Shown: one piece after another, positions 3,479-57,513 of the stretch
How positions within the stretch are numbered: position 1 is the stretch's first letter
How the letters are laid out: the number at the start of each line of letters is the position of its first letter
NCBI GenBank assembly: GCA_036172245.1
Contig: JAYWIR010000053.1
Span: 310,001-374,000 of the forward strand
Direction: 5' to 3'
DNA length: 64,000 nt
DNA from: Raillietiella orientalis
Lineage: Eukaryota
The notes under the pieces: generated by a model
The model's database searches: none
What the model was told of the DNA's origin: nothing
Seen by the model: only the letters and a program-made list of their open reading frames with translations
Translations under genes and position numbers: made by a program

Positions 3479-3482
3479 TCAG

Positions 3483-5454
3483 CTAGAGCGGACGTGTTTC
3501 CTCGGTGCTCCTCGTGCCGAAAACCGTCCCTAGGTGTAGGCTTCGTGTGTGGTGGTGGTCGATCAGGCAGCAATGCCTGACACGACCACCAGTGCGTGTC
3601 AGGGGGCTGTGGCAACGTCGCCTCCTGAAGGAATGGAGTGCCAGGTGGCGGCGGCAACGTCGCCTCTAAAGAAGGTGGAGTGCTAGGAGGAGGCGGCAAC
3701 GTCGCCTACACTGGCGAAGGAGGTGGGGGCGTCCGCATCTACAAAATCGGTCCCCGCTGCAGCGCGGGCGTGGAGCGATGTCGTGTCGGCGCCATCGCCT
3801 GCAGACGCGGCGGAATTGTCGGCCTATGTGGAGGAGGGGTACAACCCCTCATTGTTCTACAAGGTAGGCAAATTATATTCTTCTGAGAGTGCACGCGCCT
3901 TTTCGAAGGGGATGCGCGCTCTCGATGTTAAAGAGGAGTAGCTCTGCGCTATGACCATTCGTAGCGGGGGGCAGTACGTAGAGGTGATCTGCAACCATGC
4001 AGATCTGGCCCAAAGTCTGCTTAAAATCCTTGTGGTAATGAAAGCATGCAGGCTTCTTCCTGTTACGGCGGACCACAGTATGGTGGTCTACCATTTAGGA
4101 GTTACCGCGCGGATGCGGAAAGAACAGATACGCTTCGCGTTGGGAAAAGAAGGCACGGTCCATGCAGTATGGACCAAGCCTAGTCCTTTCGAGGACTATA
4201 CCACAGTTCAGTGCGGCCTCACGGTTGTCCGTGTAACCGTTTGGGAGGGCTCTACCCTTCCCCACAAACTGGTGGTCGGCGGAGTAAGCGTCGACCTCTG
4301 GTACGTGGGTAAGCCCAAATACTGTGGCTTCTGCAACACGTCGGGACACCTCAAAAGGAGGTGCCCCAACGTACAGTGCCAGGTATGCGGGACAATGGGC
4401 CACACGAAGGAAGTGTGTCCACAATCCGCTGTGCCCGTGGTTTCCGCGAGGAACCTAAAAAAACGCGCGCGGCTGCTACAGAAAAGGCTGGGGGCGAAGG
4501 CTGCCGCTCAAGCTGTGCCACCCACACCCGTGATCCAGGCCGAAGCCGACACCCCGGCAACGAATGCCGAAAAGATCGACAAACGCGGACAGGTGTCGGA
4601 ATGCCAAGAAGTCACAGCGAAAAAGAAGAAAAATTCGAAGAAAGAACGACGAATCGAAAAAAAGCTCGCCTACCAAAATAAAAAACAGCAGGTTAGCGAG
4701 AATTCAAAAGAGAGCAACGTCGTCGTGGAACGCGTCCCCGCCGAACGCCGCAAGGTAGAAATCGCTGCTACCGACGAGCAACCCACTGTTGAAGATGTCA
4801 ACAGCGTGGGGAGCGAACCGGCAGAAGCGTCCTTCATCGAGACCGTGATAGATGACGCCGCCTTCGAGCGTGCGGCGGAAGAGCTGGCTGCATAGTTGCA
4901 GCCAGACCCCTCCAAGGCTGGAAAAAAGGCAGTGAGGCGTCCGGACTCCACCGAGGAGTCGGTAACTTCCGACCTTGAAGCGCAGGACGGAAACCAAGTT
5001 TCCATCTCCGCGGCACCCCGCCGGAAGGCTGGAAGGAATTCCAGCAAACCCCGGAAAGCCCCTCTCCAGGTCGAAGACGTGGAGATGACTTCCGACAGCT
5101 AGGGTGCCATGAGCGTGTGAGAATCCCGGGAATCGTTACTCGAGAGACCATTACGCACAGACACGAAACAGATGGAGGGGGTTGAAGCCGGAAAGGTACC
5201 CAAGGTGCCTGAGGAGGCTGAAACCCTAATGTTCATCTCACCCGCCTCGGAAGAGTCGGGTTCCCCCACACCGTCATCTTCCCGGAAGTAATGCCGGAAA
5301 TCTCCTCCCGCCGTCGTCTGCGCATCGCCGTTTGGAACGTGAACGGAATGACAGACGCCGGCAGGAGACGATACATGGCCGCCATTCTAGGATCGTTCGA
5401 CCTTGTGCTGCTGCAGGAGATCCATGTGATCTCTGCAGAACAAGCGCAGGAGAT
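3483..5454 (+). mobile_element. 5' part of family B LINE: 5' UTR, disrupted ORF1 (ATG 3573, stop 5289-5291), ORF2 start
   Basis: CTAGAGCGGACGTG 5' motif; knuckles CGFCNTSGHLKRRC and CQVCGTMGHTKEVC; TAATG overlap; IAVWNVNG...QEIH; in-frame stops present. Confidence 0.88.
3605..3710 (+). repeat. Three degenerate ~40-nt tandem units (core GGCAACGTCGCCT) in the B ORF1 N-terminus
   Basis: Core seen at about 3611, 3653 and 3695; the B copy near 52600-52670 has two related units (AATPPPEAME / AATSPPEAME). Confidence 0.7.
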
Positions 5455-8400
5455 TTCTCACCCGGTCACGCCTGGGCGTTTATTCCATATAACATAACCA
5501 AAAAAAGCAATTTTACAAAATAAACCAGTTAAGAACCAAACTCCCAACCGACGACTGAACAAGAATAAAGAGAATATTGCTGCCACGCAGGGCAGAGTAA
5601 CAGTTTTGTGAACGATGTGGGGGAGCCGGGAACGCAAAGAAACCAAAATAAAATAAAAACAATGAATAAGGAGGACGGGATAAGGGTCTTTGGGATCGCT
5701 TTGGAAGACACAAAAATAAAAGCATGGGCACCGGAAGTTTTACCGAAAGAACGAGGACGCGGTATATGTGGGCGAGAGGTCGCAGGGGTCAACGGATTAC
5801 GCAGTTCTCAGAGGTGTGTAAACCGGCGATGTTTGCCGGTGATGTCCTAATTCACCTTGTCACGAAGATGAGACCACCTGGAAGCCTTCTTCATGAATTG
5901 AGCTGCAAGCAGGTGAGCCTCCCTTTGCTGCGATGACAACTCCAGGGCGTAGCGGGACTTTACGATGGCGCGAATGCAACACATGGTTGCGACAATCGCG
6001 CCAACCGAAAGTCCATTTCTGCTGAAGAAGCGCCGCAGCACATCATTGGCAGTGCCTCCTTGTGGCATGATGGCCGAAGTGAGCCTTCGCCACAGTTCCC
6101 GGAGGTCACCGCAGTCCAGCAAAACGTGCGGAAAAGACTCGATCTCTCCGCACCTTAAACAGTTTGCAAAGCAGCTCCCCCGGAAGCGAGGCTTGGCTGC
6201 CTTTTTCAGTCTAATGCACAATGTAAAAAGAGCAGCACATCTTGTTTCCACTTAAGGGGGAACACAGAGCTGTCCAAACAAACGGGGGTACCACTACCTC
6301 TCCGGGGGGCACACTTAAATGTTCGCTCCACCGAAGCAGTCCCTTCGCCCGATTCCGAGGTGTGGCGGCTTGCACCAGCTCCTTTGTGGTCCAGCTACGG
6401 AGGAGCTTACTGACTACCGCTATTCTGCAGGAGAGCTCCCATTCCGCCGGTAGGCAACCGTCGTTGCTTTCCCTGAGGGCACACAGCGCTGCGGCGATTG
6501 GTGTGACGGCCAGACGATCAGACAACTTCTTGTCCTGCATGACTTCGTCCATTTGATGACTGAGGAGAAGTCGCAGGCGTCGAAGATCTTCCGGGCGCGT
6601 TCCTTCGGAAGCTGGCCACGATGAAAAAGATTCCTGCCGCCATGCACTAATGTTCATGGGGCGGCAGGAGATCCAACTTTGGGCTTCCAGCAGAGAGGAC
6701 AGCTGCCTCAGCGGGAAGCCAAACCCTATTCTGGTGTGCCGAAAGTGGGGTAGCAACGAAAGCAGTCCCTCGCTTCCCGTGCAGCGCCTCAGTATAAGGC
6801 GTGCGGGTAAGCACCACGGCGTACACCACAGCTTGGCACAGAGCCGCAGCATGCGGAACTGAACCTGCAGTTCGATGCTGTTTAAGTCGAGGATGCCCAA
6901 GCCTGCATCCTGACGCGCCGCCACCAAGTCTTTAAGTCTAACACGGGATCTTGCAGCGCCCCACAACGCTTTGCGTAGAAGGCGCTGCGCCCAGACTTTG
7001 ACTTCCTGGGGGGGTGGACAAACAAAAAACAGGGGGCGGAGGAGGGGAACAACCAAGGTGTTCCAGATGCAGGCCCGTTCCTGCAAGACGAACTCGCCTT
7101 CTGAAAACGTACCAAGTGCAAGCTCTGCCTTCCGAAGGCAGTCCGACCACGCTTCTGAGATGCAGAAGTCGCCCAACGGCACGCCAAGGTACCTGAGCTA
7201 CCTGTCGGTGGGGATCCCCAGGTCGATCCAGTCAGACTGCCCCTCCCACGTCGCACCCACCGGAACAACCATACACTTACTGCTGTTAACGCTCACGCCC
7301 GCACCGCGACGAATCAACTCAAAGAAGTCTTCAAGCGATGTCGCCGGGGTGGACATGGGCAACAGGAGAAGCAGGTCGTCGGCATAGTCTGCCACGGCCG
7401 GCGTACCTGGACAGGAGCTCGGCAGGTTGGCTAGCGTCACCCTGCCTAATTCCTCGTCTTACCGGCACGCCGTAAACGCGACAGCCACAGATAACAATGG
7501 ATGTAATCGCGTGGCGCCAGCAGGAGCGCAAGTACGCCAACAGCGATGCCGGAAGACCCAGACGTTCCGAAAGCTCAAGAAGAAGCTTTTGGTTCACGCA
7601 ATCGAAAGCTTTGTGCAGATCGACTGCAACCGCCAAGGCTCCCGGTGTCTCCCTTTGCGTCCCGCGCCTCCGTCGGTAAGAGATCGGAAGCGTCGCTTCC
7701 GCACGACGATCCACCGCCACACGATGCTGCAATTGCAGTCATGTGCAGATGAACAAGAGATTCGCGTCCATGGACCGCCCAGGAACAGCGTACGTCTGCT
7801 CCGGTCTTACCAAGGATTCCGCGATCCTACCCATCCGCGCCACCTAAAGTGTCGAGAACAACTTGACGTCCGAATTCACTAATGTGATCGGACGCCAGTT
7901 GTTCAGTTGGCGCAAATCTCCGCCTTTCGGCAGTAGACGCACCTTCGCTGAGCGAAACGAGGCGGGGACATCGCCCGAGTCTCGCATCAGCGACGAGAGT
8001 TGGAGCACAAGGCGGATGAGCTCCGCCGCAGAACACTGAAAGAATTCCGCAGGGAGCCCATCTTCGCCTGGCGCTTTTCGTCTCTTGAGCAATGAGATGG
8101 CCGAGGAAATTTCCTCTGCCGTGTAGGGCTCATCAAGACGCGCCCGTTCCTCCTCGTCTACAACAGGTGCATCAATCGGCAGAAGCAGCCGGGAGAGGCT
8201 GCGTTTCGTCTGTGCCTCTGCATACAGAGAAGAGTGATAGCGCCTGACTATCACTCGCACGTCGGCTGGAGCCGAGCATTCCTGGTCCTGGTCGTCGAGC
8301 AGAACTGTCGCCCCTGACTGCCACACCTGGCGCTCGGCCTTGGCCTTGTACTCGGATAATCGACCAACGTCCGCGCGCCTGGAAAAGGAGCGGGCCTGCA

Positions 8401-10005
8401 GAAAATCTCTGCTGTTGGCTACGCCCTCTCCGAAGCCGCGCGGAAGCTGGTGCAAGGGAAACCGGCACCATAACTCGCGGACCGATCTTTACAGATCGTC
8501 CCAGTCCTCCAGCTCACTTATGGCAAAGTCGAGGAGGTACTGGCGAATATACTCAGCCGCCTCCAGGTTGCTTAGCCAGTCTGCCGACATCCTTCAAAAA
8601 CAGTTTGGAGGCCCCTTGCCTGGCGGGAGCAACTCGAACTCGAGCCTGTTGTGGTCTGAAAGCACGGACGGCATGGCACCTCTCCGACACACTCGACAGA
8701 GCAAGTGTTCATCAAGGTATACGTGGTCCGGCGTTGCTGCCATAACAGGGTCGCTAGCGAACAAGTTGCAGGCGTGCACGGACGCGCACATCTCTTCCGC
8801 TAGCAACTTTTCCCTTTTCTGGGATCTATTCTCGGAAAGCAGGTGGACGTTAAAGTTCCCCGCAATGAGATGGGCCACAGTAGGGTGAGATCGAGTGAGT
8901 TACTGGCTTTGAAGGGTACCGAAGAACTCAATCCTTTCGGTCCATCGTCCAGCACCGCTCGGCGCGTACTCGTTGGTTACGACAAGGTCGATCGAGTCGG
9001 ACCACTTGAGTACAAGCTGTCCCACTCGGCCTTCCGTGTCGAAACGAACGCTGCGCACCGCTCCCGCCAAAGTTCCTTGCACGAGGAAAGCGACGCCGCA
9101 CGTACGTGCAACGCCGCACCTATAAAGTAGCGTTCCGCCCGCGCGCCGTACGATTTCGGCAGCCTGCTCTCCGGAGATGCTGTGAATCTCCTGCAGGAAC
9201 GTCAAGTCGAAGGCGGGCAGAGCGTCAGCCAATAGTCGCCTCTTCTCCTCGTGTTGGAGCCCGTTGACGTTCCAAGAGGTTAAGGCAACACGACGAGAAG
9301 ACGCAATTACCCTCATGACGGCTGGGAAAGCGAGGCCGTGGTGCTCGCCTCACCCGGCGAGCGGGCAGTAAGCAGCACGACGGGCTGGAGGGCGCACTCG
9401 CCACCGGCCTCAACTGTGCTGCACGTAATCGGGTGCTCCTCCCCGGGTGCAGAACCTGTGGGTTCCGGGGTGAGCACTCGCCGTTTCGCGGCGAGTGTGT
9501 CACGCCTCTGGGCTTGAGCCCTGCGTGCGCTCGCTCTTGCGCGAGTGACGCGTCGTTCAGCGGCGCTATCGGACTCCTTTGTGGAGTCAGATGCTCGCAC
9601 GATCGACGTGCGCTTGCATCCATCCGATTGCACCGGGATAGCCTTCCCGGCGGTCACAGAAGCGGACTTGCACGCGTTGAAGGCGCAGGCTTTTTCCTTG
9701 GAAGAGGCACAAGCAGCGCGTGTTTTCGAATTCCCGCGACTGCGTTTTCCTTTGGAAGAGCTCAGGGATTTATGTTGCGTAGCTTTTTTTGGAGATTTTT
9801 CTTTCCTCCTGTCCACAACCTGCTATTCGCCTCCGCGATTTTCGGAAGCTTCCGCGACAGAAGTTGCGGAAACCTCCAGGATTTTGGCTGCGTTCTCTGG
9901 GGTCGTTGCTTTCGCTACGCCTTTAAATGGCGGCAACGGAGTCATATTGTTGAAAGTTGTTCGCTGACTCGGCAGGAGATTCCTCCTCTCCTGCCGAGAC
10001 AGCGA
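5455..10005 (-). mobile_element. Family D LINE copy D1: ORF1 C-terminal half, disrupted ORF2, 3' UTR
   Basis: Colinear with the intact copy at 24941-29558; has stops, frameshifts and a 62-nt RT deletion near 7439; terminal hairpin 5461-5476. Confidence 0.9.
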
Positions 10006-13000
10006 ACTTGCTCCGCGGCTCAAAGTATTGTGCTCTTGACAAAGTAATTAGTTAATTGTGCTCGTGTGTGCCCGGAGAGGGGAAGTTTTTAAGACGAAAC
10101 TAAAAAAAAGAAGCGGCGAGGAGATCGCGGCAAAAGACCTGCAGTGGTCCCGTGCAGCAAGACGAGCTGCCAGGATGCAGGCACCTAGAAGAGGAGTGGA
10201 GAGACCGTCGTCCCCCATGGAAGCCATGGAGGTAACGTGCGGCAACGGCGAGGCGGTGGCAGGCATGCCGAGGATCGCGCCCGCGGCGGGCTTTGCTGCG
10301 CCGGCGGCGGCGATGCCAAGGGTCGTGCCCGCGGCGACGACGGCGGAGGTCGTGCCCGCGGCGGCGACGCCGAGGATCGTGCCCGCGGCGGGGAAGGTCG
10401 CGCCTGCGGCGGCGATGCCGAGGGTGCCGCCCGCGGCGGTAACGGCGGCAACGTCGAGGTTTGCGCCCGCGGCGGTGGCGACCCAAGCGGGACCCGCGGG
10501 CGTCCACGCGGTGCAGGGAGCGACGCCATCTTGTTCGGCTGCGGCGTCGCAGCCCTTTTCTTATGCGTCATTGGCGGCTGGACAGGCGAGTGACCACCCA
10601 CCTCGGAAATTCGGTAAGCCGCTTAGCGGAAAAGTACTAAAAGTGGACCGACCAATAGTCGAAATAGGCCCCAACGTGAAGCCCATTATCTTCAAGACGT
10701 GGCTAATAAAATTAAATAACATCAGGGAGGTCTATTTGTCCCTCGACAAGACGGACATAGACTTTGATCGCATTCAGGCGATCATTCCATCGAACAACGG
10801 ATTCACAGTCTTTAAAGACTGTGAAAACATTAGAGAGCGATTGATCCAGAAGGGGATCCATATACAAGGACGGATGGTTTGTGGTATTGGCGAAATGCCA
10901 TACACAACCGTCTTTTTAAACGGCATCTCCATCCTCACACCGCAACTAGCGGTGTGGAATTCCTTGGAGCAGTTTGGGGAAGTTCTGGACCTTGAATTCC
11001 AGAACTTCTCTGGAAACATATTTTCTGGCGACATGATCCCAAGATGAAGTTGAGGGAGGGAGCGGTGATCCCTGGATTGGCCGTTATTGACGAACAATCC
11101 CAGGGAGTGAATGTGCGTTACCGGCAACAACCGGTATTCTGCACCGGGTGCAAGCAGTTCGGCCACAGGGCCGGCTCTTGCCCAACGTGTCGTTGTTTCC
11201 GCTGCGGCAAAGTAGGACATCAAGTCCGAAACTGCCCGCAGCCGGAGGTGTGCTCCTTCTGCAAGAAACACGGACATGCGAAATGGAGCTGTGCGGAGTT
11301 TGCAAACTGCAGGAGGATTCGAGGTCTCTCTCCCGTGAGAGAGAGAAACACCGAGGAGGCGGAACAGCCTCAGAAGGCAGGAAGGCCGAAGAAGGTGAAA
11401 GAAGCCGTTGCGGTATCGGAAAACGGCTTCATACAGGTAGGGAAGAAAGGAAAGAGGAGGATGCTCGTCAAGGAGCAAGAAACCCCTTTTATCCTGGAAC
11501 GTGAAGAGCAAGAAGGCGAGAGGATGGAGGTAGCGCAGGAAGGCGCGGAAGAAGAAATAGCCAAAGCCACTTCGGTGTCGCAGGAGGCCCTGCAATCTAC
11601 GGAGGAGTTCGCATCACTGGCTAATGAAGTCCTAGAAGTGCAGAGCGGTCACCAGCAAGAGAAAATCTTGCAGAAGATCTGCAATGCACAGGAGAACATC
11701 AACCAGGTGGTGGAGGTCGCTGAACGCGAGAAGTTAGAGGAACAGCTTCTCGACGTGAAGGCGAACTTCTGCGCCAAGGTCGAGATAGAGGCGCTATCTC
11801 GAAAATTGATCGCGCAGGCGGAACACTCTTCGGAGGAGGCGGAAATTACCGACCTCACAGGTACCGAGAGTGACGCCGGCAGCGAGAAGCCCGCTGCTTC
11901 TTCATTGTCTGGAAGAGCACGCTCTCTCAGACAGAAGAAGCTCAGGAAGGTTAAAAAATAGGTCTTCCTTTTTTATGGTCTCTTCCCTATCGACCGCCAT
12001 CAGGATGACCATCGCCTCCTGGAACGTAAACGGTGTGGTCGACCAGGGAAAAAGAAAAAGGATTGTGCAGACCGTCGCACAACAAGACATCGTGTGCCTG
12101 CAGGAGAACCACAGGATGGGTCTGGAGATAAGCCAGCGAATGGAACGACGATTCAACGGGCAGATGTTCGTCAACGAAGGAGAACGGTACACGAAGGGTG
12201 TGGCGGTGCTAATAAAGAACCACTTAGCCCCCACAATTCTGGAAGTGTTCTGTCCCCAACCCGTACGAATCATCGGCGTGCGACTGGCCTGGTCCGCGAC
12301 TGTTCACCTTATCCTGGTGAACGTGTACGGGCCGCACAGGCTAAAACATCGTTGCGCGGAGGCGCTGCATGCAACACTCCGGCAAAAGGTCGCCCCTAAG
12401 GACGTCGTGATTGTTGCTGTCGATCTCAAGTTCTTGGATGTGATCATTCATTCGGAAGACGCCAGAGGAAGGACGGCGTATCGACGGCTATCCGAGGAGT
12501 TCGGACTGGTCTGGCGAACAGCAAGCCAAAAGCCAATCGATCACGTCCTGCACAGCACCGAACTTGGGAACCGCATCCAGGGGTTTCGCGACACTATGAC
12601 TACGGTGTCCGATCACCCCCTGGTGCGGTTTTCCCTAAGAACGGAGAATCCTCAGCGGAGGCAAGGCACCAGGGCGGCGCTCGTCAGCATGCCCGTCTGG
12701 TTCGAAACCAGTCCCGGAAATCAGGCTGTCCTGGAGACGATTCTGAAGGCAACAACCATCCGAAAAGTCGCCGACTGGGACAGCCTGAAACACAGAATGC
12801 ACCTGTTATCAAACATCCAGTTCGGAGATAGGCGTTTGAGGCAGGAGGCGTACCGGGAGCTGAACATCCAAGATCGCTCACTCTCGAAGTACTTCGTTCA
12901 GTACGAGAGTCGGTACGTCTTTAAGAACATAAAAGGGTAAGTCGACGTGCTGGAGAAGAGAAATCTGGCAACAGATATCTTCTGCATTCAGAACGACGGT

Positions 13001-15627
13001 CAAAAGCGACAGTCGTCTGAGGACATCGTGGATGTTTTTCAAAGGCATTACACGAAACACTTTAGGCGACAACATCTCTGTCGCTCTAGTCAACAGGCCT
13101 TTCTGAGCTACCTCGAGAAGAGGACCGACGACCTCCAGCGGAACAGACTGGAGGAGGAGATCTCCGAAGAAGAGGTGAAGACTGCGTTTGGGCAACTTCG
13201 CAAGGACGTGACAGCGGGCCCCGACAGTGTACCCATCACGCACTATCAGCGGTACCTGCACGCCTACCTGCGCTTGTTCCACCAATTGACCCTCTGCATC
13301 CGGGAAGAAGGCAGACTACCTCAGTCCTTCTACGAGAGTCATATGAGATTGCTGCCGAAAGGAGGCGACTCTACCCAGATCGCCCAATGGAGGCCAATCT
13401 CGATTCTAAACTCCGATGCCAAGTGGTTGGCGAAGATCTGGTCCAACCGCTTAGGCAAGGTCATGTCAAGACTGATCTCTCTCGTCCAGACATGTACAGT
13501 CCCAGGACGACACATGTCGGACAATGTCAAGTGTGCCCAGGCCACTGTTGGACTCAGTCGATACGTCGGCGAGAACCTGGTGCTGGTGTTCACTGACATG
13601 GAGAAAGCCTTCGACTCCATCGACCACGGGATGCTGCTGAAGGTTCTGGAGAAGCTAGGGCTCCCGGAACACTTCAGCAGCTTCGTGAGGGCGGTACTCC
13701 AGAACCAGTACTGCCGAATCAAGATCAACTGCCAGGAGACGGCAGCAATCAGGATGGAACGAGTAGTCCGACAGGGCGACTCGCTAAGTCCGATGCTGTT
13801 CGTCATCTATATGGAGGCGTTGTCGTCCTTTATCGAGAAGAGCGGACGACTAAGCGGGATTGCCATCGATAGCCAGCGTCTTACCCATCTGGCATACGCC
13901 GATGATCTACTTTTCTTCATCAAGGGAGAGAAAAATCAGCGTGCGTTTCTGGATGTGGTGGACCTGATCGAACAGGGCTTGTGCTTAAAAATCAATTCCC
14001 AGAAGAGCCAGCTTTTGCCCGTCGGAATACTGGATCTCTCCACTCTAACGGGTAGTGGATTCCGTACGGTGGACACGTCCAAGTACCTGGGAGTCTACAT
14101 CGGCGACGGCTCTGCGTCGAAGATGCTGTGGAAGGAATTCCTGGGGAAAACGGCCAAGGAAACAGCCAAGTACACCCGAACGGACCTTGGGATGAAGCGA
14201 AAGGCCAACATATGGAACGAAGTACTTCTTACGAAAGTGCTTTTCGGGGCGGCCTTCGCGAGGATGAACAAGGACTCTACTAGGGAGTTCGACAAGCTGC
14301 AAAGAAAAACACTCTGGGGTCACTATCGCCCAAGAGTAAGACCGAAACCCCTGTGTCCTCCCAGGGAAGAAGGCGGTTCCGGGATGAAGTCGCTTGCACA
14401 TCCCATGGAAATCATGGATACGCGACACATCCTGGACATTGCCACTCACTGGGATGACTGGCCGTATGCGGCGCACAGGGCCTACGCGTTGTTGCTTAAC
14501 AACTCGAAAGGCCTGATGACTGCGCTGCTAGGCAAAGTAGGGAAATCGATAACAATCGACACGACCTGGAGGAAGAAGCAACGGCTGGTGCGGAAGCACC
14601 AAATCAAGATCGTGCCGCGCAGCAGGGTACTCTGGCAGCACGAGTCCATCCTGGTGATCCCTTGGTTGCTTCCTGTCCAGCCGGACACAAGAAGCTGGAT
14701 CTACCAGCGGTACAGAGTTACCCTACTGCAAATCCAGGAGTGGAGGCGAGGAGGCTACCTACATCAAACACGTATACTTCGGTATACAGAGATGATGTTA
14801 GGAAGGTTTACCCACAGGACCCGCGAAGTCTGGTTCAACCACAACGACTTCGCATGGTCGAGGGTAACCAGAACAAACCTCGGAAGGCTTATCCAAGAAA
14901 ACGCCCGTGACACCAGTGCCCTCCAGGAAGCCTGCGAACGCTACGGGAGAGAACGGTTAAACCTGTTAGCGATCGGCACGACGCTCTGGAGGAGTGGCCT
15001 TCCACCGGGCACCCAGGATGACCTCCTGAAGTTTTATCACGGAGGAATCCAGAGTGGGTCCCGATTGCAGCACTTCACAGGAAGACGGGAAGACCGAGAC
15101 TGCGCAGCATGTGGAGACGACGACACGAGACTTCACGTCTTGACGTGTCCCACACTCCTGCATGAATGGCTGATCCTGAAAAGGATCATAGGACTTACCA
15201 ACAAGTCCGTTATGGAGATCCTCGCCGGGATGTTTCATGGGGATGGTAATGTTCCCTGTTACAATCCCATGGTGAGGACGACCATAGCCCTCTTCATCAC
15301 CGCCATACTTGTGCGGTGGTGGAAAATGAGGAAAGCCAGGAGAGCCGCACCACCGATGGAGATCCTACAAGGGCTCTTGAAGAGGTAAATCGGCATCAGG
15401 AACTGCGGAAAGATCCACGCCTGGACCTACCGATTGATCCTGAAGAGAATCCAGGACGACGCCCGGGACCATCCTGCTGGAATTCCCCCTTGAAAAGCAG
15501 AACTCTAGTGCAACCCAAGGACCCCCAAGTGCAAAATGTTTGTATTGAGTGAGTGAGAGTGCGAATGTAAATTTTGTATTTTTATAGAAAAATAAACTTA
15601 CCCCACCCCTTGTGGGACTTGGGGAAA
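10006..15627 (+). mobile_element. Full-length family A LINE copy A1 (~5.6 kb), inactivated
   Basis: ORF1 with three CCHC knuckles, frameshifted near 11040; ORF2 EN and RT split by TAA 12938-12940; flanked by CCTGCCGAGxCxGxGA 16-mers. Confidence 0.92.
10263..10500 (+). repeat. GC-rich coding minisatellite (PRIVPAA / PRVVPAA-like units) in the A ORF1 N-terminus
   Basis: Recurrent GCCCGCGGCG core; also at about 15900-16110, 29816-30050 and 35452-35640, the last with 17 fewer codons. Confidence 0.8.
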
Positions 15628-15643
15628 CCTGCCGAGTCGGTGA

Positions 15644-18600
15644 ACTTGCTTCGCGGCTCAAAGTATTGTGCGCTCGACAACATAATCAGTTAATTGTGCT
15701 CGTGTGTGCCCGGAGAGGGGAAGTTTTCCAGACGAAACTACAAAAGAAGCGGCGAGGAGATCGCGGCAAAAGACCTGCAGTGGTCCCGTGCAGCAAGAGC
15801 AGCTGCCAGGATGCAGGCACCTAGAAGAGGAGTGGAGAGACCGTCGTCCCCCATGGAAGCCATGGAGGTAACGTGCGGCAACGGCGAGGCGGTGGCAGGC
15901 ATGCCGAGGATCGCGCCCGCGGCGGGCTTTGCTGCGCCGACGGCGGCGATGCCAAGGGTCGTGCCCGCGGCGTCGACGGCGGAGGTCGTGCCCGCGGCAG
16001 CGACGCCGCGGATCGTGCCCGCGGCGGGGAAGGTCGCGCCTGCGGCGGCGATGCCGAGGGTGCCGCCCGCGGCGGCAACGGTGGCGACGTCGAGAATTGC
16101 GCTTGCGGCGGCGTCGTCCAGGGAGGACCCGCGGGCGTCCACGCGGTTGAGGGCGAGACGCCATCTTCTTCGGCTGCGGCAGCGCAGCGCTTTTCCTATG
16201 CGTCGGTGGCAACTGGACAAGCGAGTGTCCACCCCCCAAGAAAATTCGGGAAGCCGCTATGCGGTAAAGTCCAAAAGCTGTATCGAACGATCGTGAAGTT
16301 AGGGATCGAATGTGCAGCCCATCATTTTCAAGATTGGGCTGATCAAGTTCAGTAATATCAGGGAGGTGTATCTGTCCCTCGATAAGACGGATATCAATTT
16401 TGATCGCATACAGGCGATCATACCGGCAAATAACGGGTTCACAGTCTTCACAAACTGTGAAAAGATTAGAAAGCGATTGGTCCAGAAGGGGTTCAATATA
16501 CAAGCGAGGATGGTTTGTGGTATTGGCGAAATGCCATACACAACCGTTTTTCTGAACATCATCCCTATCCTCACACCGCAAGTAACGGTGTGGAACTTTA
16601 TGGAGCAGAATGGGGAAGTTCTGGACCTTTAATTCCAGAACTTCTCTGGAAATATATTTTCTGGCGACATGATTGCGAAAATGAAGTTGAAAGAGGGAGC
16701 TCTGATACCTGGATTAGCCGTTCTTGACAAACAATCCCAGGGAGTGAACGTGCGTTACCGGCAACAGCCGATATTCTTCACCGGGTGCAAGCAGTTCGGC
16801 CACAAAGCCGGCGCTTGCCCAACGTGTCGTGGTTTCCGCTGCGGCTAAGTAGGACAACAAGTCCGAAACTGCCTGAAGCCGCAGGTGTGCTTTTTCTGCG
16901 ATTAACACAGACATGCCAAATGGAGCTGTGCGGAGTTTGCAAACTGCAGGAGGATTCGAGGACTCTCTCCCGTGAGAGAGAGAAACACCAAGGAGGCGGA
17001 ACAGCCTCAGAAGGCAGGAAGGCCGAAGAAGGTGAAAGAAGCCGTTGCGGTATCGGAAAACGGCTTCATACAGGTAGGCAAGAAAGGAAAGAGGAGGATG
17101 CTCGTCCAAGAGCAAGAAACCCCTTTTATCCTGGAACGTGAATAGCAAGAAGGCGAGAGGATGGAGGTAGCGCAGGAAGGCGCGGAAGAAGAAATAGCCA
17201 AAGCCACTTCGGTGTCGCAGGAGGCCCTGTAATCTACGGAGGAGTTCGCATCACTGGCTAATGAAGTCCTAGAAGTGCAGAGCGGTCACCAGCAAGAGAA
17301 AATCTTGCAGAAGATCTGCAATGCACAGGAGAAAGTCAACCAGGTTGTGAAGGTCACAGAGCGCGAAAAGCTAGAGGAACAGCTCCTCGACGTAAAGGCG
17401 AACTTCTGCGCCAAGGTCCAGATAGAGATGCTATCTCGAAAACCGATCGCGCGGGCCGAACACTCGACGGAGGAGGCGGAAGTAACCGACCTCACCGAAA
17501 CAGAGAGTGACGCCGGCAGTGAGAAGCGCGCTGCTTCTTCATTGTGTGGAAGAGCACGCTCTCTCAGAGATAACAAGCTCAGGAAGGCCGAGAAATAGGT
17601 CTTCCCCTTTTATGGCCTCTTCCCTATCGACCGCCAGGAGGCTGAACATCGCCTCCTGGAATGTAAACGGTATGGTCGACCAGGAAAAAAGAAAAAGGAT
17701 TGTGCGAACCATCGCACAACAAGACATAGTGTGCCTGCAGGAGACCCACAAGATGGGTCTCGAGATTAGTCAGCAAATGGAACGGCGTTTCAACGGGCAG
17801 ATTTTCGTCAGCGAGGGAGAACGGAACACGCAGCGTGTGGCGGTCCTAATCAAGAACAACTTGGCCCCCACTATTCTGGAAGTGTTCTGTCCCCAACCCG
17901 GACGAATCATCGTCGTGCGACTCGCCTGGTCCGCTACTGTTCACCTCATCCTGGTGAACGTGTATGGGCCGCACAGGCTAAAACATCGTTGTGCGGAGGC
18001 GCTGCATGCAGCACTCCGTGAAAAAATTGCTTCCAAGGACGTCGTGATTGTTGCTGGCGATCTCAACATATTGGATGAGATTACTCACTCCGAAGACGCC
18101 GGAGGAACGACGGCGTTTCGGCGGTTATCCGACGAGTTCGGACTGGTGTGGCGAACTGCAAGTCACAAGCCGATCGATCACGTCCTGCACAGCACCGAAC
18201 TTGAAAATCGCATCTAGGGTTTTCGAGACATTATGACCACGGTGTCCGATCACCCCCTGGTGCGGTTTTCCCTAATAACGGAGAATCCTTGGCGGAGTCA
18301 AGGCACCAGGGCAGCGCTCGTCAGCATGCCCGTCTGGTTCGAAACCAGTCCCGGACATCAGGCTGTCCTGGAGACGATTCTGAAGGCAACAACCATCCGA
18401 AAAGTCGCCGACTGGGACAGCCTGAAACACAGAATGCACCTGTTATCAAACATGCAGTTCGGAGATAGGCGTTTGAGGCAGGAGGCGTACCGGGAGCTGA
18501 ACATCCAAGATCGCTCACTCTCAAAGTACTTCGTTCAGTACGAGAGTCGGTACGTCTTTAAGAACATAAAAGGGTAAGTCGACGTGCTGGAGAAGAGAAA

Positions 18601-20967
18601 TCTGGCAACAGATATCTTCTGCATTCAGAACGACGGTCAAAAGCGACAGTCGTCTGAGGACATCGTGGATGTTTTTCAAAGGCATTACACGAAACACTTT
18701 AGGCGACAACATCTCTGTCGCTCTAGTCAACAGGCCTTTCTGAGCTACCTCGAGAAGAGGACCGACGATCTCCAGCGGAACAGACTGGAGGAGGTATTCT
18801 TCGAAGACGAGGTGAAGACTGCATTTGGTCAACTACGCAAGGACGTGGCAGCGGGCCCTGTCAGCGTACTTATCACTCACTATCAGCGGTACTTGCATGC
18901 CTACTTGCCTTTGTTTCACCAGTTGACCCTCTGCATCCGCGAAGAAGGAAAACTACCTTAGTCCTTCTACGAAAGCCGGATGAGAGTGTTGTCAAAAGGA
19001 GGCGACCTCACGCAGCTCGCTCAATGGAGGCCAATCTCGATCCTGAACTCCGATTCCAAGTGGTTGGCGAAAATCTGGTCCAACCGCTTAGGCAAGGTCA
19101 TGTCGAGGCTCATCTCTCCGGTCCAAACGTGTGCAGTCCCTGGACGTCACATGTCGGACAATGTCAAGTGTGCCCAGGCCACCGTCGGACTCAGGCAATA
19201 CGTCGGCGAGAATCTGGCGCTGGTGTTCACTGACATGGAGAACGCTTTTGACTCCATCGACCATGGGATACTGCTGAAGGTTCTGGAGAAGCTAGGCCTT
19301 CCCGAACACTTCAGCAACTTCCTGAGGGTTGTACTCCTGAAACAGTACTGCCGAATCAAGATCAACGGCTTGGAGACGGCAGCAATGCGGATGGAACGGG
19401 GAGTCCGGCAGGGCGATTCGCTAAGTCCGATGCTGTTCGTCATCTACATGGAGGCGTTGTCATCCTTTATCGAGAAGAGCGGACGACTGCAAGGCATAAC
19501 AATCGATGGTCAGCGTCTTACCCATCTTGCATACGCTGATGATCTACTCTTCTTTATCAAGGGAGAGAGAAATCAACGAGCGTTTCTGGATGTGGTAGAC
19601 CTGATGGATCAAGGCCTGGATCTAAAGATCAACGCCCAGAAAAGCCATCTTTTGCCCGTTGGAATCTTCGATCTCTCCACTCTAGCGGGGAGAGGATTTC
19701 GAACGGTGGACAAGGCCAAGTACCTGGGTGTCTACATTGGCGACGTCTCAGCGTCGAAGCTATTGTGCACCGAGATCCTAGGGAAAACGGCAAAGGAAGC
19801 AGCCAAGTACACCCGAACGGACCTTGGAATGAAGCGAAAGGCCAACATATGGAACGGAGTACTCCTTTTAAAAGTGCTCATCGGGGCGGCCTTCGCGAGG
19901 ATTTACAAGGAAACCACGATGGAGTTCGACAATCTGCAGAGAAAAACACTGTGGGGATACTATCGCCCAAGAGTCCGACTAAAACCCCAGTGTCGTCCCA
20001 GGGAAGAAGGCGGTTCCGGGATGAAGTCGCTTGCACACTCCATGGAAATCATGGATACGCGAAACATCCTGGACATTGCCACTCACTGGGATGACTGGCC
20101 GTATGCGGCGAACAGGGCCTACGCGTTGCTGTTGAACAACTCGAAAGGCCTGATGACTGCGCTGCTAGGCCGAGCAGGCGTATGGAAAAAAATCGACCCA
20201 ACCTGGACGAGGAAGTAACGGCTGGTGCGAAAGCACAAAATCAAGATCGTGCCGAGAAGTAGGGAACTCTGGCAGGACGAGTCCATCCTGGTGATCCCTT
20301 GGTTGCTTCCTGTCCCGCCGGACACGAGAAGCTGGATCTACAAGCGGTCCAGGTTTACCCTTCAACGAATCCAGGAGTGGAAACGAGGAGGGTACCTTTA
20401 TCACACTCGTATACTTAGGTATATAGAGAAGATGTTAGGAAGGTTTACCCACATGACTCGCGAAGTGTGGTTCAACCACAACGACTTTGCGTGGTCCAGG
20501 GTAACCATAACAAACCTCCGAAGACTAATTCAAGAAGAACACAGTGATATCAGTGCCCTCCAGGAAGCCGCCGATCGCTACAACAGTGAGCGGATGAACC
20601 TGTTAGCGATTGGCAGGACGCTCTGGAGGAGTGACGTTCAACCGGGCACCCAGGATGACCTCCTGATGTTTAAACATGAAGGAATCCAGAGTGGGTCCCG
20701 ATTGCAGCACTACACCGGAAGAAGGGAAGATCGAGACTGCACAGCATGTGGAGACATCGACTCGAGAGTTCACGTCTTCAGGTGTCCCACATTGCTGCAT
20801 GACTGGCTTATCCTGAAAAAGATCATCGGACTTACGAAGAGATGCGTAATGGAGATCCTCGCTAGGATGTTTCAGGGGAATGGTAATGTTCCCTGTTACA
20901 ATCCCATGGTAAACGCGACCATCACCCTCTTCATCACCGCCATACTTGTGCGGTGGTGCAAAATGAG
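15644..20967 (+). mobile_element. Family A LINE copy A2, more degenerate, 3' truncated
   Basis: Colinear with A1; many stops; homology ends at ...GTGCAAAATGAG (20967). Confidence 0.9.
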
Positions 20968-22109
20968 TACTCCAGCTACGGAGGGTGGCTGCGCTGTATC
21001 GGAAAAACTTAGGATTGCTCACCTGTCGCCCTTTGAACGGTAGTGCCTGGTTGCAGGAAACCGTTCGAACGTGGGGACGGTTCGGCATGCAACAATCCCA
21101 ACAGGAACGAAGGTTCCTGTTTGGGGGTTACAGAAGGTGCACGCTTCGCGAGATCCCGGAGGATCCAAAGAAGGGAGCGTAGGCAGGAAGAACCCCCATC
21201 GCTGCTGTGCTGCCCGCGCTGATGGAAGATCTGGACAGCCATGTTGCGACGAAGTGGGTGGTTACAGTAACAATCTCTGGAGAGTAGAAGAAAATAGGAG
21301 AGTGGAAGACGGGCCAGCTAACTGATGCTGCGACCCCGAATACGCCTTCCAATGGAATTCTGCGCTCGGACGCGCTGGTTGATGTTCCCATTTTACATCT
21401 AAAGTGGCCCCCGGTGCTCGTTAACACTTTCGCCCTCCTCTTAAAATGGCTGGAGTGGGCTCTCCTGTTACAGCACTGGGTACTTCCCTGCAACACCCGC
21501 CGACACCACTGGCTCTTGGGAGCGGTGGACCCCAATTGCGTCAGGTGTGGGGAACAAGAGTCCCTCCCCACCTGCTAGTGGATTGTGTTGCCCTTCGGCC
21601 CCTTTGGTTTCGCTTTGCCGCGGCCATCGGAATCCCCTGCGGCAACCCCAGGGACGCACTGAAAGCCCTCTTCGTTGCCGACGCCCTTCGGCCAGCGGCC
21701 TCGTTAGCAGCTTTGTGCTGCCTACGCGGGATCGTCACCGCTTGGAGCAAAGCTACGGGAGGACAACGCGACCAGGGTGCCATCCAGCCAGCCTCCCAGT
21801 TCCTGAGGATGGCGTCCCGATGGCCTTACCTGGATCCAGGAATACAGAAGGAGATTGCCGGCATCCTGCAAAGAATGCAACGGCCCCACCAGCAACTGTG
21901 ATCCCTTCCCTTACCCTCCCAACTTTTTTTATCTTTTTTGTTTTGTTCTTTGTTTTTTCCCCTGCCGTGGTGGACCGTACCGGTCTGCGAACCGGTGACT
22001 AGGCTGGCTCTGTGTTTCTTCGTGCGTGGCTGGAGCAATGGTCTAGCCACCGCACGTTTTTCCAAAGGTTTATTTTACAAAAAAAGGCCCCGGCGAAATC
22101 CGGGGGAAA
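20968..22109 (+). mobile_element. 3' fragment of family B LINE (ORF2 C-terminus, 3' UTR, terminal hairpin)
   Basis: Highly similar to the reverse complement of 47281-48430; ends ...RMQRPHQQL; CCCGG-cgaaat-CCGGG at 22088-22104. Confidence 0.88.
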
Positions 22110-23035: not shown

Positions 23036-23037
23036 TC

Positions 23038-24940
23038 GAGCGGACGTGTCTTTTCGTTGCTCCTGAGTTCCATTTCCGTTGGTGCTTGTGCGTGGTGTGG
23101 GTGGAGGATTAGGCAGAAATGCCTGATACCACCACCGGTGAGGATCCGGGGGCGATGACCTCATTGCCCCCGGAGCAGATGGAGGTGGGAGCTCCCGCAT
23201 CAGTGGAGGCTCCCACCAGCACGGATGCGCCCCCGGCCCTACCCAGGGCTTGGAACGCCGGGGCTGCGACACCTACGCCAGCGGCTATGGCGGAAATGCG
23301 CGCTTACCTGGAGGAGGGGTATAACCCACCCCTTCTATATAAGGTAGGCGGTCTAAATTCTCCCGAGAACGCGCGCGCCTTCTCACAGGCGATGCGCGTT
23401 CTCGGCGTACAAAAAGAGGAGCTTCTGGCTATGTCCGTCAGAAGCGGGGGTCAATTTGTGGAAGTTATCTGCAAGGAGGCAACTCTTGCGCAGAGACTTC
23501 TGCGAACCCCCGTAAGTATGGGCAGCCGGAGGCTTCTCCCAATAACTGAAGACCGGTCGGTGATCATTCACCTGACCGGTATCACGTTCCGGATGACGAA
23601 GGAGGCCGTCCGGAACGAATTTGGAAAATTCGCAACTGTCCACGCGCTGTGGGGCAAGCCTACTCCTTTTGTCGATTACGACGGGTTGCTTGGCGGCCTG
23701 GGTGCAGCGCGAGTGACGGTTCGCGAGGGATGTGAGATTCCCCACAAACTCACCGTCAACGGTGAATCCGTTGACGTGTGGTACGTGGGGAAACCCAAGT
23801 TTTGCGGCTGCTGCATCAGCTTTGGTCACCTTAAAATGAGGTGTCCGAGCGTGCAGTGCCAGCAATGCAAACAAGCGGGGCACACCCGTCTGGTGTGCCC
23901 CCAAAACACAGTCCGCGTCGTGTCCACGAAAAACGCGAGAAAGCGCGCGGCAAAAAAGAGTAAGAAGCTGGCAGCTCGTGCTGCTGCTAAGGAGGTCACC
24001 TCCGCCACCAAGGCGAAGGCCAGCCCCGAGACTTCGGCGAAAGACGTCGAAAAGGTCGAGGGCGAGGGTCAAGAGCCAGGGTGGCAGAAGGTCGACCCCA
24101 AGAAAAACTCCCATAAGAAGGGAAAGAACGTGGCGAAACGGAGGGAAACCGCTCTGCGCCGCGATAAAATTAAAAGCTGCTGCGTCGTTGTAGAGCGGAT
24201 TCCCGCCATCGACGAATGCGGCGCTAAAGAACTCGCTGCGGCCCCTGCTCAACCCTCCGTTGACAAAGTCAACAAGGAGGGGAGCGAGGCGGCGGCGTCC
24301 GTCATCGAGCCCACGCTCGATGACGTCGCCTTCGAGCGCGCCGCGGAGGAGCTGGCTGCCTCGTTGCAGCCGGTTGCCCCCAAGGCTGGCAAGAAGGCCG
24401 TCAGGCGTCCGGCTTCCCCTCAGGAGTCGGCCACTTCCGACCCCGAGGTGAAAACCGGAAACACAGCATCCATCTCCGCGGCACCCCGCAAAAAGGCAGG
24501 ACGAAAGTCCACAATGCCCCGGAAGATCGTCTCCCCCGACGAAAGGGAAGAGATGGCTTCCGGTAGCGAGGGTGCCATGAGCGTGGGAAACTCCCGGGAC
24601 CCGTCGCCCGAGAGAATTCCACGCTCGGACACGGAGGCGATGGTGAGGATGGAGGCCGAACAGGTACCCCAGGCGCCTGAAGAGGCCTCCGTCCTCGTTC
24701 CGATGGTCCTCGAACCGATGGACCTTTCCTACACCTGCCCCGCGGCAGGTGCCGCGACGCCACTTTCCCAGCCATAATGCCGGGAATCGCCTCTCGCCGT
24801 CGTCTTCTGATCGCCTGTTGGAACGTGAACGGGCTAAGCGACGACGGCAAGAGGCGTGACGTGGCCGCCACCCTGGCATCCTTCGACCTGGTGCTGCTGC
24901 TGGAGATCCACGTGATCTTCGCAGATCAAGCCCGAGAGAT
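23038..24940 (+). mobile_element. 5' part of a B-related LINE: 5' UTR, intact ORF1, ORF2 start
   Basis: GAGCGGACGTG 5' motif; TAATG at 24775-24779; IACWNVNG; interrupted by D2. Confidence 0.88.
23119..24777 (+). CDS. Intact LINE ORF1p, 552 aa, gag-like nucleic-acid-binding protein with two CCHC zinc knuckles
   Basis: ATG start; CGCCISFGHLKMRC and CQQCKQAGHTRLVC; basic low-complexity C-terminus; stop overlaps the ORF2 ATG. Confidence 0.88.
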   Translation: MPDTTTGEDPGAMTSLPPEQMEVGAPASVEAPTSTDAPPALPRAWNAGAATPTPAAMAEMRAYLEEGYNPPLLYKVGGLNSPENARAFSQAMRVLGVQKEELLAMSVRSGGQFVEVICKEATLAQRLLRTPVSMGSRRLLPITEDRSVIIHLTGITFRMTKEAVRNEFGKFATVHALWGKPTPFVDYDGLLGGLGAARVTVREGCEIPHKLTVNGESVDVWYVGKPKFCGCCISFGHLKMRCPSVQCQQCKQAGHTRLVCPQNTVRVVSTKNARKRAAKKSKKLAARAAAKEVTSATKAKASPETSAKDVEKVEGEGQEPGWQKVDPKKNSHKKGKNVAKRRETALRRDKIKSCCVVVERIPAIDECGAKELAAAPAQPSVDKVNKEGSEAAASVIEPTLDDVAFERAAEELAASLQPVAPKAGKKAVRRPASPQESATSDPEVKTGNTASISAAPRKKAGRKSTMPRKIVSPDEREEMASGSEGAMSVGNSRDPSPERIPRSDTEAMVRMEAEQVPQAPEEASVLVPMVLEPMDLSYTCPAAGAATPLSQP

Positions 24941-35180: not shown

Positions 35181-35363
35181 CCTGCCGAGTCGGTGAACTT
35201 GCTCCGCGGCTAGAAGTATTGTGCGCTTGACAACTTATTCAGTTCATTGTGCTCGTGTGTGCCCGGAGAGGGGAAGTTTCCAGAAGAAACAAAAAAAAGA
35301 AGCGGCGAGGACATCGCGGCAAAAGACCTGCAGTGGTCCCGTGCAGCAAGACCAGCTGCCAGG

Positions 35364-37103: not shown

Positions 37104-37116
37104 GTCTTCCCCTTTT

Positions 37117-40026: not shown

Positions 40027-40764
40027 AGGCTTATCCAAGAAAACGACCGTGACACCACTGCCCTCCAGGAAGCCACCGAACGCTACGGGAGTAAACGGTT
40101 CAACCTGTTAGTGATCGGCACGACGCTCTGGAGGAGTGACCTTCCGCCGGGCACCCAGGATGACCTCCTGATGTTTTATCACGGAGGAATCCAGAGTGGG
40201 TCGCGATTGCAGCACTTCACAGGAAGACGGGAAAACCGATACTGCGCAGCATGTGGAGACGACGACACGAGACTTCACGACTTGACGTTTCCCACACTGC
40301 TGCATGACTGGCTGATCCTGAAAAGGATCATAGGACTTACCAACAAGTCCGTTATGGAGATCCTCGCCAGGATGTTTCATATGGATGGTAATGTTCCCTG
40401 TTACAATCCCATGGTGAGGACGACCATAGCCCTCTTCATCACCGCCATACTTGTGGTGGAAAATGAGGAAAGCCAGGAGAGTCGCACCACCGATGGAGAT
40501 CCTACAAGGGCTCTTGAAGATGAAAATCGGCATCAGGAACTGCGGGAAGATCCACGCCTGGACGTACCGATTCATCCTGAAGAGGATCCAAGACGACGCC
40601 CGGGACTATCCAGCTGGAATTCCCCCCTGAAAAGCAGAACTCTAGTGCAACCCAAGGACCCTCAAGTGCAAAATGTTTGTATTGAGTGAATGAGAGTGCG
40701 AATGTAAATTTTGTATTTTTATAGAAAAATAAACTTACCCCACCCCTTGTGGGACTTGGGGAAA

Positions 40765-42123
40765 CCTGCCGAGTCGGCGATGGGGCGCCTGCATGCAGCG
40801 TGCTTTTGCTCGTTGCGACGCTGCTTTTTACGGCTTTCGTAGCCTTTGCAGTGGGGCCTGCGCTGCAGTAAGGCTGTCCGGTACTCGGAAGGGACAACGG
40901 AACGAGGCAAGAAGTCTTCGCACTGTTGCGATCTTCCTGTTTTCCTACCTTTCCCTCCAGGGTGTTACGGAGATTTCCTGGTTCCAGGTTCGGAAAGGTG
41001 CCTGCGAGTTCGGCAGAGAGGGAAGGCACGGCACGCGTCAAACCCTCGCGCTCCTTTTTAATTGGCTTCCCCGCCGTGACTTTCCCCTTTCGGGGCGTTG
41101 CGGGCGGGGATGCTTTCTTTTCATCCGCGGATCGCTCGTGGTTTTTTGCGAGTTTTTGCGGACGACGTTTTTTATTTGCCGCTGCGGCTTTTCGTGCAGT
41201 GGTCTCTTGAACCCGACGAATTTCCGCTGCGGCTCTTTTTATTGCAAGTACCGGGCACTTCTTGATTTCGTGCCCGGAATCTTTGCAATAGCGGCATCTT
41301 GGAGAGGGGCACTCTTTAATTCGGTGCCCATCCTTGCCGCACTGCTCGCACGCGCGAGTCTGGCCTATGAACCACAGGTGAACGACCGTGCCGTTCACCT
41401 GCAGCTGCTCAGGGACAACACGCCTGTTCGCGACGGTGATCCTCGCGGAGGCTTGTCCAATGTGGACAGAGGGGAAATCCTTTAGAGGATTTGGCCTCCT
41501 CCACAGAGCGTGCACGGTGGCGAACTTCGCCAGCACACTTACGACATCGCGGTCGGAGATTTCCGGTTCGATGTCGCACAATTGAACGACAAAAGAGTCG
41601 TCCATCGCGGTAGGTATGACTTCCTTGCCATTGATGGTCAACGGCGTACGGAGAAGGCGCTGCACAAGTGCTGCGTTCTTGCACCGAATCTTCGTATATT
41701 CCATCCTGCCAGCAGGCATTATGGCAAGGAGTTCCTCCTCGCGAACGCCTATCCGGACGAGCTCATCATTGAGCTCACGACCGATTCTCCCGTTAAGTGG
41801 CCCACTGATTTTATAACGGAGTGCAGGCATGTATCCTGATGACACATATGCCTGGAACTCCGCATCGCAGGGTCCTGGTCTTTGGGAGGTAACGACGGCG
41901 TAACTCCTCACCGGGGGCGAGGAAACCATTACGGAGGATGCGGCCACTTCAAGTGCAGCTGAAGTGCATCCAGTGGCTTGCTGCTCCACACTATCCTGTG
42001 TACTGGCCATGTTGCACTATGCTACTTGGCAGATTGCACAGGAACACACAAGTGCGAGCAAAAACGCAGGCACAAAGTTGCCCGATCGTTGGCGCGGAAA
42101 GACGCGGAAACACGTCTGCACTG
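40765..42123 (-). mobile_element. 5' part of a family D LINE: 5' UTR and ORF1 N-terminal half (ATG 42010)
   Basis: CEQCGKDGHRIKEC and CRYCKDSGHEIKKC; ends at SPTRQ, matching SLSRQ where D1/D2 ORF1 resumes; GCAGACGTGTTTCC 5' motif. Assignment to D is inferred from the shared 16-mer. Confidence 0.8.
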
Positions 42124-42125
42124 TA

Positions 42126-52794: not shown

Positions 52795-52798
52795 AGCG

Positions 52799-57512: not shown

Positions 57513-57513
57513 A

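Follow-up and report, generated by a model that had tools for sequence, protein, structure and literature searches.

How does a stretch of DNA come to consist of long interspersed nuclear elements (LINEs) lying inside one another, and are the insertion points in such a nest fixed? This question is raised by a 64,000-nt stretch of the Raillietiella orientalis assembly GCA_036172245.1 (GenBank; contig JAYWIR010000053.1, positions 310,001 to 374,000, forward strand), hereafter called the window, all 64 kb of which are LINE within LINE. The elements are L1-group retrotransposons without long terminal repeats, with an apurinic/apyrimidinic (APE) endonuclease (EN) and a reverse transcriptase (RT); Exo_endo_phos and RVT_1 domains are found in the long open reading frames (ORFs) of the window and a CCHC knuckle in some of the ORF1s. 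The analysis centres on one of them, family D, which in our judgement is likely to be a target-specific L1-group LINE with its target in the EN gene of other LINEs.

The two D junctions and the ends of family D

The 3' end of D (...CCGGGTGAGAA; D on the minus strand) adjoins ...GAGAT in two host LINEs, at 5454/5455 in H1 and at 24940/24941 in H2. With a slash marking the junction, the letters are ...GAACAAGCGCAGGAGAT/TTCTCACCCGG at 5438-5454/5455 in H1 and ...GATCAAGCCCGAGAGAT/TTCTCACCCGG at 24924-24940/24941 in H2, and H2 resumes beyond D with CGAGCGCGGGAGAT at 42123-42136, followed by CGAACGG. The junction letters quoted in a preliminary description of the window (GAGAT at 5454 and 24940, and the end at 42123) are thereby found to be correct. 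The features concerned are as follows, in window positions.

3480..5454, plus strand: host H1 (family A-like), its 5' end and ORF1 up to codon ~56 of EN, interrupted by D1 (5' motif at 3480-3500, tblastn matches)
5441..5454, plus strand: upstream half of the D target in H1 (CAAGCGCAGGAGAT), with the putative nick after T5454 on the host sense strand
5455..9989, minus strand: D1, the 3' 4.5 kb of family D, namely the 3' untranslated region (UTR) and a degenerate, frameshifted ORF2, with the terminus ...AATAAACGCCCAGGCGTGACCGGGTGAGAA at 5455
9990..20967, plus strand: T1a and T1b, two head-to-tail family T LINEs inside ORF1 of D1, both with a 13-mer GCCGAGwCrGyGA in front, T1b without its last ~230 nt
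23037..24940, plus strand: left part of host H2, with the 5' end, an intact 552-aa ORF1 (23119-24777) and EN codons 1-56, terminating in ...CAAGCCCGAGAGAT
24941..29542, minus strand: 3' part of D2, with the 3' UTR, an intact 1191-aa EN and RT ORF2 (25297-28872) and the portion of ORF1 downstream of the T insertion
29543..40790, plus strand: array of T2a and T2b in ORF1 of D2, with three 13-mers at 29543-29555, ~35181-35193 and 40778-40790
40791..42122, minus strand: 5' part of D2, with the 5' UTR (5' end TACAGTGCAGACGTGTTTCC...) and most of ORF1
42123..43819, plus strand: right part of H2, starting with a copy like a target-site duplication (TSD), CGAGCGCGGGAGAT (42123-42136), then EN and RT codons ~52-622
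43939..43953, minus strand: empty D target in host copy H6 (CAGGAGATCGAGACG)
50906..50920, minus strand: empty D target in host copy H3 (CAAGAGATCGAACGG), adjoining a deletion of roughly 50-56 nt

When as many as 3 mismatches are tolerated, the 18-nt D terminus occurs twice in the window (0.09 expected), and the next 20-mer of D also twice (0.00 expected). The flanks of the two hosts over 5289-5454 have 33 mismatches in 166 columns (80.1% identity), whereas D1 and D2 over 5455-9989 have 277 in 4602 (94.0%), and this difference is significant (Fisher p=3.5e-9). The last host mismatches lie at 5440, 5446, 5448 and 5449, at distances of 14, 8, 6 and 5 nt to the junction, whereas within D mismatches begin at 5473; because of these positions on either side, the identity step falls within 5449-5473, that is, at the junction. 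The T copies next to D are 99.2% identical between the two loci for T-a (43 mismatches in 5638) and 87.7% for T-b (659 in 5356). Farther from the junction, the H2 ORF1 and the H1 region share 49.9% protein identity over 561 aa, and across the 5' 2 kb, compared in steps of 150 nt, the hosts are 54-79% identical in nucleotides. By these comparisons H1 and H2 are classed as different, partly mosaic host subfamilies; the sequences to the left of H1 and of H2 are unrelated. The preliminary description had stated that D is inserted at the same EN nucleotide in two host subfamilies, with host flanks differing right up to the junction and highly similar D sides, and this is borne out by the 80.1% against 94.0% identity, by the mismatches at 5, 6 and 8 nt and by a D similarity that extends over 4.6 kb. 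It had also named an identity switch upstream of the junction, through recombination inside the host, as the outcome that would speak against it, and the switch proved to lie at the junction itself. For a 5.5-kb host, the calculated chance that two random landings share a single base and strand is about 1 in 11,000. The presence of D1 in H1 and of D2 in H2 is best explained by two separate integrations into diverged hosts.

Without the T array, family D measures 5947 nt and carries a 426-aa ORF1, a 209-aa ORF and an ORF2 of 1190-1191 aa. In ORF2 of D2 (1191 aa) the Pfam domains Exo_endo_phos (residues 15-223, E 3e-11) and RVT_1 (464-734, E 1e-19) are recognized, and among solved proteins the nearest match is human L1 ORF2p (E 7e-45). 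A zf-CCHC match in D reaches 19.4 bits, under the cut-off of 20.8; the 426-aa ORF stands upstream of ORF2 once the T array is removed. On these features family D is classified as an L1-group APE-type non-LTR retrotransposon of about 5.9 kb with ORF1 and an EN/RT ORF2. Its relatives are distant: the best database relatives of the D and T ORF2s have 28-29% identity in protein searches, the protein atlas yielded generic EN and RT clusters only, and a metagenome profile search with 4 ORF2 sequences found 37 loci, all distant, with 21-50% identity over the best segment and 23-29% in the long matches. The exact D 3' end had 0 matches in the metagenome scans. As for the state of the two copies, D1 lacks ~50 nt of the D2 ORF2 (7433-7444 vs 26935-26985) and carries several frameshifts; in D2, ORF2 is intact and ORF1 is broken by the T array.

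D has a defined 3' end, without poly(A). The motif AATAAA-N-CCCGG-loop-CCGGG-TGA(GA)A is present at 8 LINE 3' ends in the window, that of D included, and a 5' motif, ..GACGTGTyT, at 5 LINE 5' ends (H1, H2, H3, H6 and D2) as well as at one internal site, 50484. Since both motifs recur at other LINE ends, the D ends are taken as element termini and not as breakpoints. The putative D 5' end near 42123, proposed in the preliminary description, gains support in this way, as the end at 42122/42123 carries the terminal motif (..GACGTGTTTCC) that is common to four other LINE 5' ends. A conserved 3' hairpin was not confirmed by RNAalifold, which gave 4 pairs and no compensatory change, and the shared 3' motif is one of sequence only.

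Empty targets are present in the window in H6 (CAGGAGAT/CGAGACG) and in H3 (CAAGAGAT/CGAACGG). The EN of H3 lacks roughly 50-56 nt at 50920-50935 on the minus strand, ending beside its empty D target (TCCTAC/GCAAGAGATCGAACGG); a repeat-mediated origin of this deletion is possible because the flanks in other hosts hold two copies of GCAGGAGATC. Further targets and D ends were found in public run X1, the sole public run found to hold this DNA (share 0.65), for which the figures come from the contigs listed; runs X2 and X3 gave short low-complexity pieces only, and no RNA run was listed as holding the DNA of the window. Two X1 contigs leave H2 at 24917 and go on with ...CCCAGGAGATCGAAACG, an uninterrupted target (GGAGAT/CGA). 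Another contig, of 383 nt, spans 24911-25292 without a break at 24940/24941; it has 14 differences and one gap relative to D2 and is also unlike D1 at the few listed positions compared by eye, and therefore it represents a further D copy joined to a host at the same place. Moreover, one X1 contig passes into D at 24939 from AGCAGGCGGAGATTGAA+AT, a flank that in frame corresponds to the same EN stretch in a third host variant. Taken together, the ends support the use of the same short EN site by every D end among those listed. The preliminary description had allowed for D copies ending elsewhere: among the ends listed none was found in another part of a host, and the claim of one and the same nucleotide holds for two ends only.

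Proposed integration of D and the competing explanations

We propose that D would integrate by target-primed reverse transcription at one fixed EN site, at codons ~55-56 of related host LINEs. As the host strand ...GAGAT-3' runs into the complement of the D RNA 3' end, the first nick is placed on the host sense strand, where D's own endonuclease would cut at GGAGAT^CGAAC (host letters GCGCAGGAGAT^CGAACGG; the caret marks the nick). The nicked host strand would then serve as primer for a cDNA begun at the D RNA 3' end, ...CCGGGUGAGAA, which lacks poly(A). With a sense-strand nick at GAGAT^CGAAC, D therefore comes to lie antisense to the host, whose ORF2 it would break, and a second cut ~14 nt upstream would yield the TSD-like overlap. 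A possible helper is a read-through 3' tail of the D RNA pairing with the target. Two ideas, that insertion falls in the most strongly conserved parts of ORF2 and that the nick is guided by homology of the incoming RNA to the host, were rejected as a general rule: when 3067 windows are ranked, the 15 nt preceding the nick come at the 18th percentile for the EN site, the 80th for the RT site and the 23rd for the GFGEG site. Self-immunity was considered as well; D's own site (GCCGAAAT/CGAAC) and H3's own RT site (TTGGATT) are suggestive, but in view of a D end that follows GAAAT/, and of too few cases, this idea was set aside.

The 14-nt overlap stated in the preliminary description does exist, but only 11 of the 14 letters match (CAAGCCCGAGAGAT vs CGAGCGCGGGAGAT). 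All the TSD-like overlaps in the window are in fact imperfect, with 11/14 for D2, 12/15 for H3, about 10/13 for H1 and 11/13 for T, and the copies are located as follows.

D2: 42123-42136
H3: 52799-52813
H1: 3461-3475
T: 29543-29555 and 40778-40790

The imperfection could come about if the 5'-side copy were carried in by the leader of a donor-locus transcript annealing to the new target; we regard this as the less likely course, and it finds no support in two family-A cases, where the 5'-side copies of H1 and H3 differ at 5/15, no better than chance.

The two loci have also exchanged sequence. A 5.5-kb block, 9862-15386 vs 29415-34939, is 99.5% identical between them and is offset from the T ends. 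Its first boundary is 60-130 nt inside D (1/128 vs 36/376 mismatches, p=3e-4), and it stops ~250 nt short of the T 3' end (13/242 vs 29/5337 mismatches, p=1e-8). As the boundaries of this T1a/T2a block are unlike those of T, the loci have exchanged sequence by conversion or exchange. The independence of the T-in-D events may accordingly be limited by exchange between the arrays, and one origin for both may be considered.

Such exchange makes it necessary to weigh whether one D with its T array was copied at the DNA level into the second host, by gene conversion or double-strand-break repair, or stems from a segmental duplication that was later overwritten. The loci lie only 19.5 kb apart in the same orientation and with the same order host-D-T-T, and the high-identity block off the T boundaries shows that conversion or exchange between them did take place. 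We nevertheless consider such copying improbable, since conversion across heterology should co-convert the flanks and an identity of 78-80% makes a poor substrate, whereas the hosts carry mismatches at distances of 5, 6, 8 and 14 nt to the junction and diverge by 20-46% across 2 kb, with no co-converted flank, and the sequence left of them is unrelated. In addition, a layer-specific divergence (host 20%, D 6%, T-a 0.8%, T-b 12%) is not given by one duplication. By a slight degree less improbable is a composite retrotransposition, in which D already bearing the T array was copied as one unit into the second host; the site specificity of D would be unaffected. In keeping with this, the two loci share one and the same D/T junction and run colinear between 5455 and about 16027 of locus 1, but a single copying event predicts uniform divergence, and 94.0% for D, 99.2% for T-a and 87.7% for T-b were seen; the break at 20968, at which T1b meets a family-A 3' part and not the target in the host, is also better explained by an internal deletion than by truncation at the 5' end.

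The least credible course, to which we give very little weight, is an old composite: D would have entered the ancestor of H1 and H2, the host with D would have spread, and the D parts would later have been homogenised while the hosts diverged. The T part does show conversion between the two loci, and the host subfamilies are mosaic, both of which suit this history, but D-free host copies exist in both subfamily backgrounds (H3, H6 and 2 contigs), a host with 6 kb inserted antisense in its ORF2 would no longer be able to move by itself, and a homogenisation halting exactly at both D ends is unlikely.

Several points weigh against target-specific integration of D, which we still regard as likely. 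The window holds two D junctions only, a small number, and the role of the D endonuclease in setting the specificity is putative. Run X1 is perhaps the window's own sample and so not independent support, and its contig evidence is part of all the ends, with 89 further loose ends and 367 further differences. The D end in the third host variant is maybe 6 nt beyond, after GAAAT/ and not GAGAT/, according to a hand alignment of 17 letters. A second GCAGGAGATC ~45 nt upstream in H1 (LLQEIH codons; GCAGGAGATCCATG) is unused, and therefore more than the core motif is recognised. The TSD mismatches exceed what the inserted elements' own divergence predicts (6% for D), and with a D2 overlap of only 11/14 the two halves of H2 could come from different elements. 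Finally, given the exchange between the loci, D1 and D2 may be more alike than their ages warrant.

Fixed targets of the other LINE families

Precise targets are not confined to D. The family-A copies H3, 20969-22108 and 58184-59528 are 80-94% alike in their last 900 nt, and the family-A 3' ends at 22108, 47282 and 58184 all adjoin ...TTCGATT/ (TTCGATT^GCGTCGAC), antisense, in three hosts. The target is formed by the RT motif A codons (K-A-F-D), TTCGATT^GCG, with the junctions at 22108/22109, 47281/47282 and 58183/58184. The pairwise identities on the two sides of these junctions are as follows.

22108 and 47282: host flank 72%, element 92%
22108 and 58184: host flank 53%, element 78%
47282 and 58184: host flank 53%, element 83%

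The elements themselves are listed here.

20969..22108, plus strand: 3' part of a family-A LINE, probably that of H1 itself, with its 3' end adjoining the RT motif-A site of a minus-strand host
47282..52798, minus strand: H3, a full-length family-A LINE, antisense at the RT motif-A site of the plus-strand G1 (46431-47281 and 52799-54369)
58184..59528, minus strand: a family-A LINE truncated at its 5' end, with the 3' end at that same nucleotide of RT motif A in a third host (57508-58183)

At their 5' ends, H1 (3480) and H3 (52798) adjoin points where the host resumes, 3475 and 52799, respectively. For locus 1 the best reading is a single family-A element on the plus strand, H1, in the RT site of one minus-strand host, the halves of which would be 22109-23036 and 1646-3475, and a 4.1-kb internal deletion at 20968 would have taken the end of T1b, the 5' part of D1 and codons ~52-904 of H1. 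At 20967/20969 the family-A 3' part follows immediately on T1b, from which the last ~230 nt are missing. Elsewhere, between the break of H2 at codon ~622 and the ORF1 of H6 (43816-44705), EN is present as inverted fragments, with minus-strand codons 99-1 beside plus-strand codons 66-261; this is a rearrangement rather than a simple insertion.

A third recurrent site is GGCGAT^, in the 'GFGEG' codons. The G1 3' end (about 54911/54912) adjoins ...GGTTTCGGCGAT/ of the minus-strand H4, and the H6 5' end (46430/46431) adjoins G1 at the same site, where G1 resumes at AAGAGATTTGGCGAAGG. Family T, for its part, lies in the D ORF1 after ..CTCTCCT/GCCGAG, with a 13-mer GCCGAGwCrGyGA at each tandem junction, and the 13-mers of the T arrays differ from each other at 1-3/13 positions. 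T2b may be active, to judge from its intact ORF1 (618 aa) and ORF2 (1004 aa). The H2 5' end (23037) is at yet another site of H2's host.

Target use follows family. Among the 8 hairpin-type 3' ends, 6 lie against LINE coding sequence in antisense orientation, at one or other of the three recurrent bases, and the resolved nestings are antisense in 10/10 cases. The family-E 3' ends 742/743 and 61076/61077 (77% alike) precede ORF1-like sequence in sense orientation, each at its own point of ORF1; no other 3' ends depart from the antisense fixed-site rule, and these two may be head-to-tail joins. This generality across sister families is the strongest support for D as a target-specific element. 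We see an even balance for and against a further view, namely that the window holds a guild of L1-group LINE families, each with one nucleotide-precise target in another's coding sequence, on the host sense strand, so that the layers lie antisense. The targets would be TTCGATT^GCG (RT motif A) for family A, GGCGAT^ for the G1 type, GAGAT^CGAAC (EN) for D and the 13-mer in the D ORF1 for T. As part of the guild, and with the same even balance, the sister families would have switched targets onto each other, making a hyperparasitic chain and a self-growing LINE cluster.

If this is true, related families with different base-precise targets would form a natural series on target change by APE endonuclease and RNA. 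It would also give a mechanism for the in-place growth of LINE-only clusters, those of the Zepp type among them, where each copy makes targets for the next family, and would present transposons living as parasites of other transposons, with host genes spared.

Relation to known target-specific and nested LINEs

Target-specific LINEs are known for ribosomal DNA (rDNA), small RNA genes, telomeres and simple repeats, and Tx1L lies inside the DNA transposon Tx1D. The R1 clade has switched targets, and target-specific LINEs are under development as tools for gene insertion at safe sites. Zepp-type clusters have been proposed as algal centromeres.

In the excerpts of Kojima and Jurka 2015 (PMC4640811), 'transposons' are named among the targets of sequence-specific elements, and Tx1 and R1 are the APE-type specific clades. 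D resembles the R1/Tx1 clades (R1, TRAS/SART, Tx1L, Keno and others) in having an APE EN and an RT, no poly(A), one nucleotide, one orientation and a multicopy target. Unlike in those clades, the D target consists of protein-coding EN codons ~55-56 of sister LINEs, and not of rDNA, small nuclear RNA (snRNA) genes, telomeres, microsatellites or a DNA transposon; moreover, several related families occur in one locus, each with a different site, and the likeness is one of behaviour. In the literature covered, with the original Zepp descriptions outside its scope, LINE families with base-precise targets in sister-LINE coding sequence were not found, and neither were a different fixed site for each related family and a strict antisense rule.

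Clusters of nested copies are described for Zepp/ZeppL, mostly with 3' ends in tandem, in an excerpt of PMC8226300, and clusters of nested elements of the Zepp type in one of PMC3446292. Like Zepp/ZeppL of green algae as portrayed there, the LINEs of the window are L1-group elements accumulating by insertion into existing copies. The Zepp/ZeppL descriptions in these excerpts give tandem 3'-end arrays, without a fixed nucleotide, a strand rule or a multi-family hierarchy; in the window, unlike there, the LINEs lie antisense at fixed bases and have no poly(A), five keep their 5' ends, and only family T is in tandem. Proteins of Coccomyxa, Chlorella and Chlamydomonas were absent among the named database matches of the D and T ORF2s.

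The tandem order of family T has its own parallel. According to an excerpt of McGurk and Barbash 2018 (PMC5932611), R1 tandems are separated by a duplicated rDNA target, from double insertion at one site, and, as far as that excerpt goes, the copies of family T are similarly head-to-tail with a 13-nt target copy between them. Unlike for the R1 tandems, the target of T is a LINE ORF1, and its 13-mers differ at 1-3/13.

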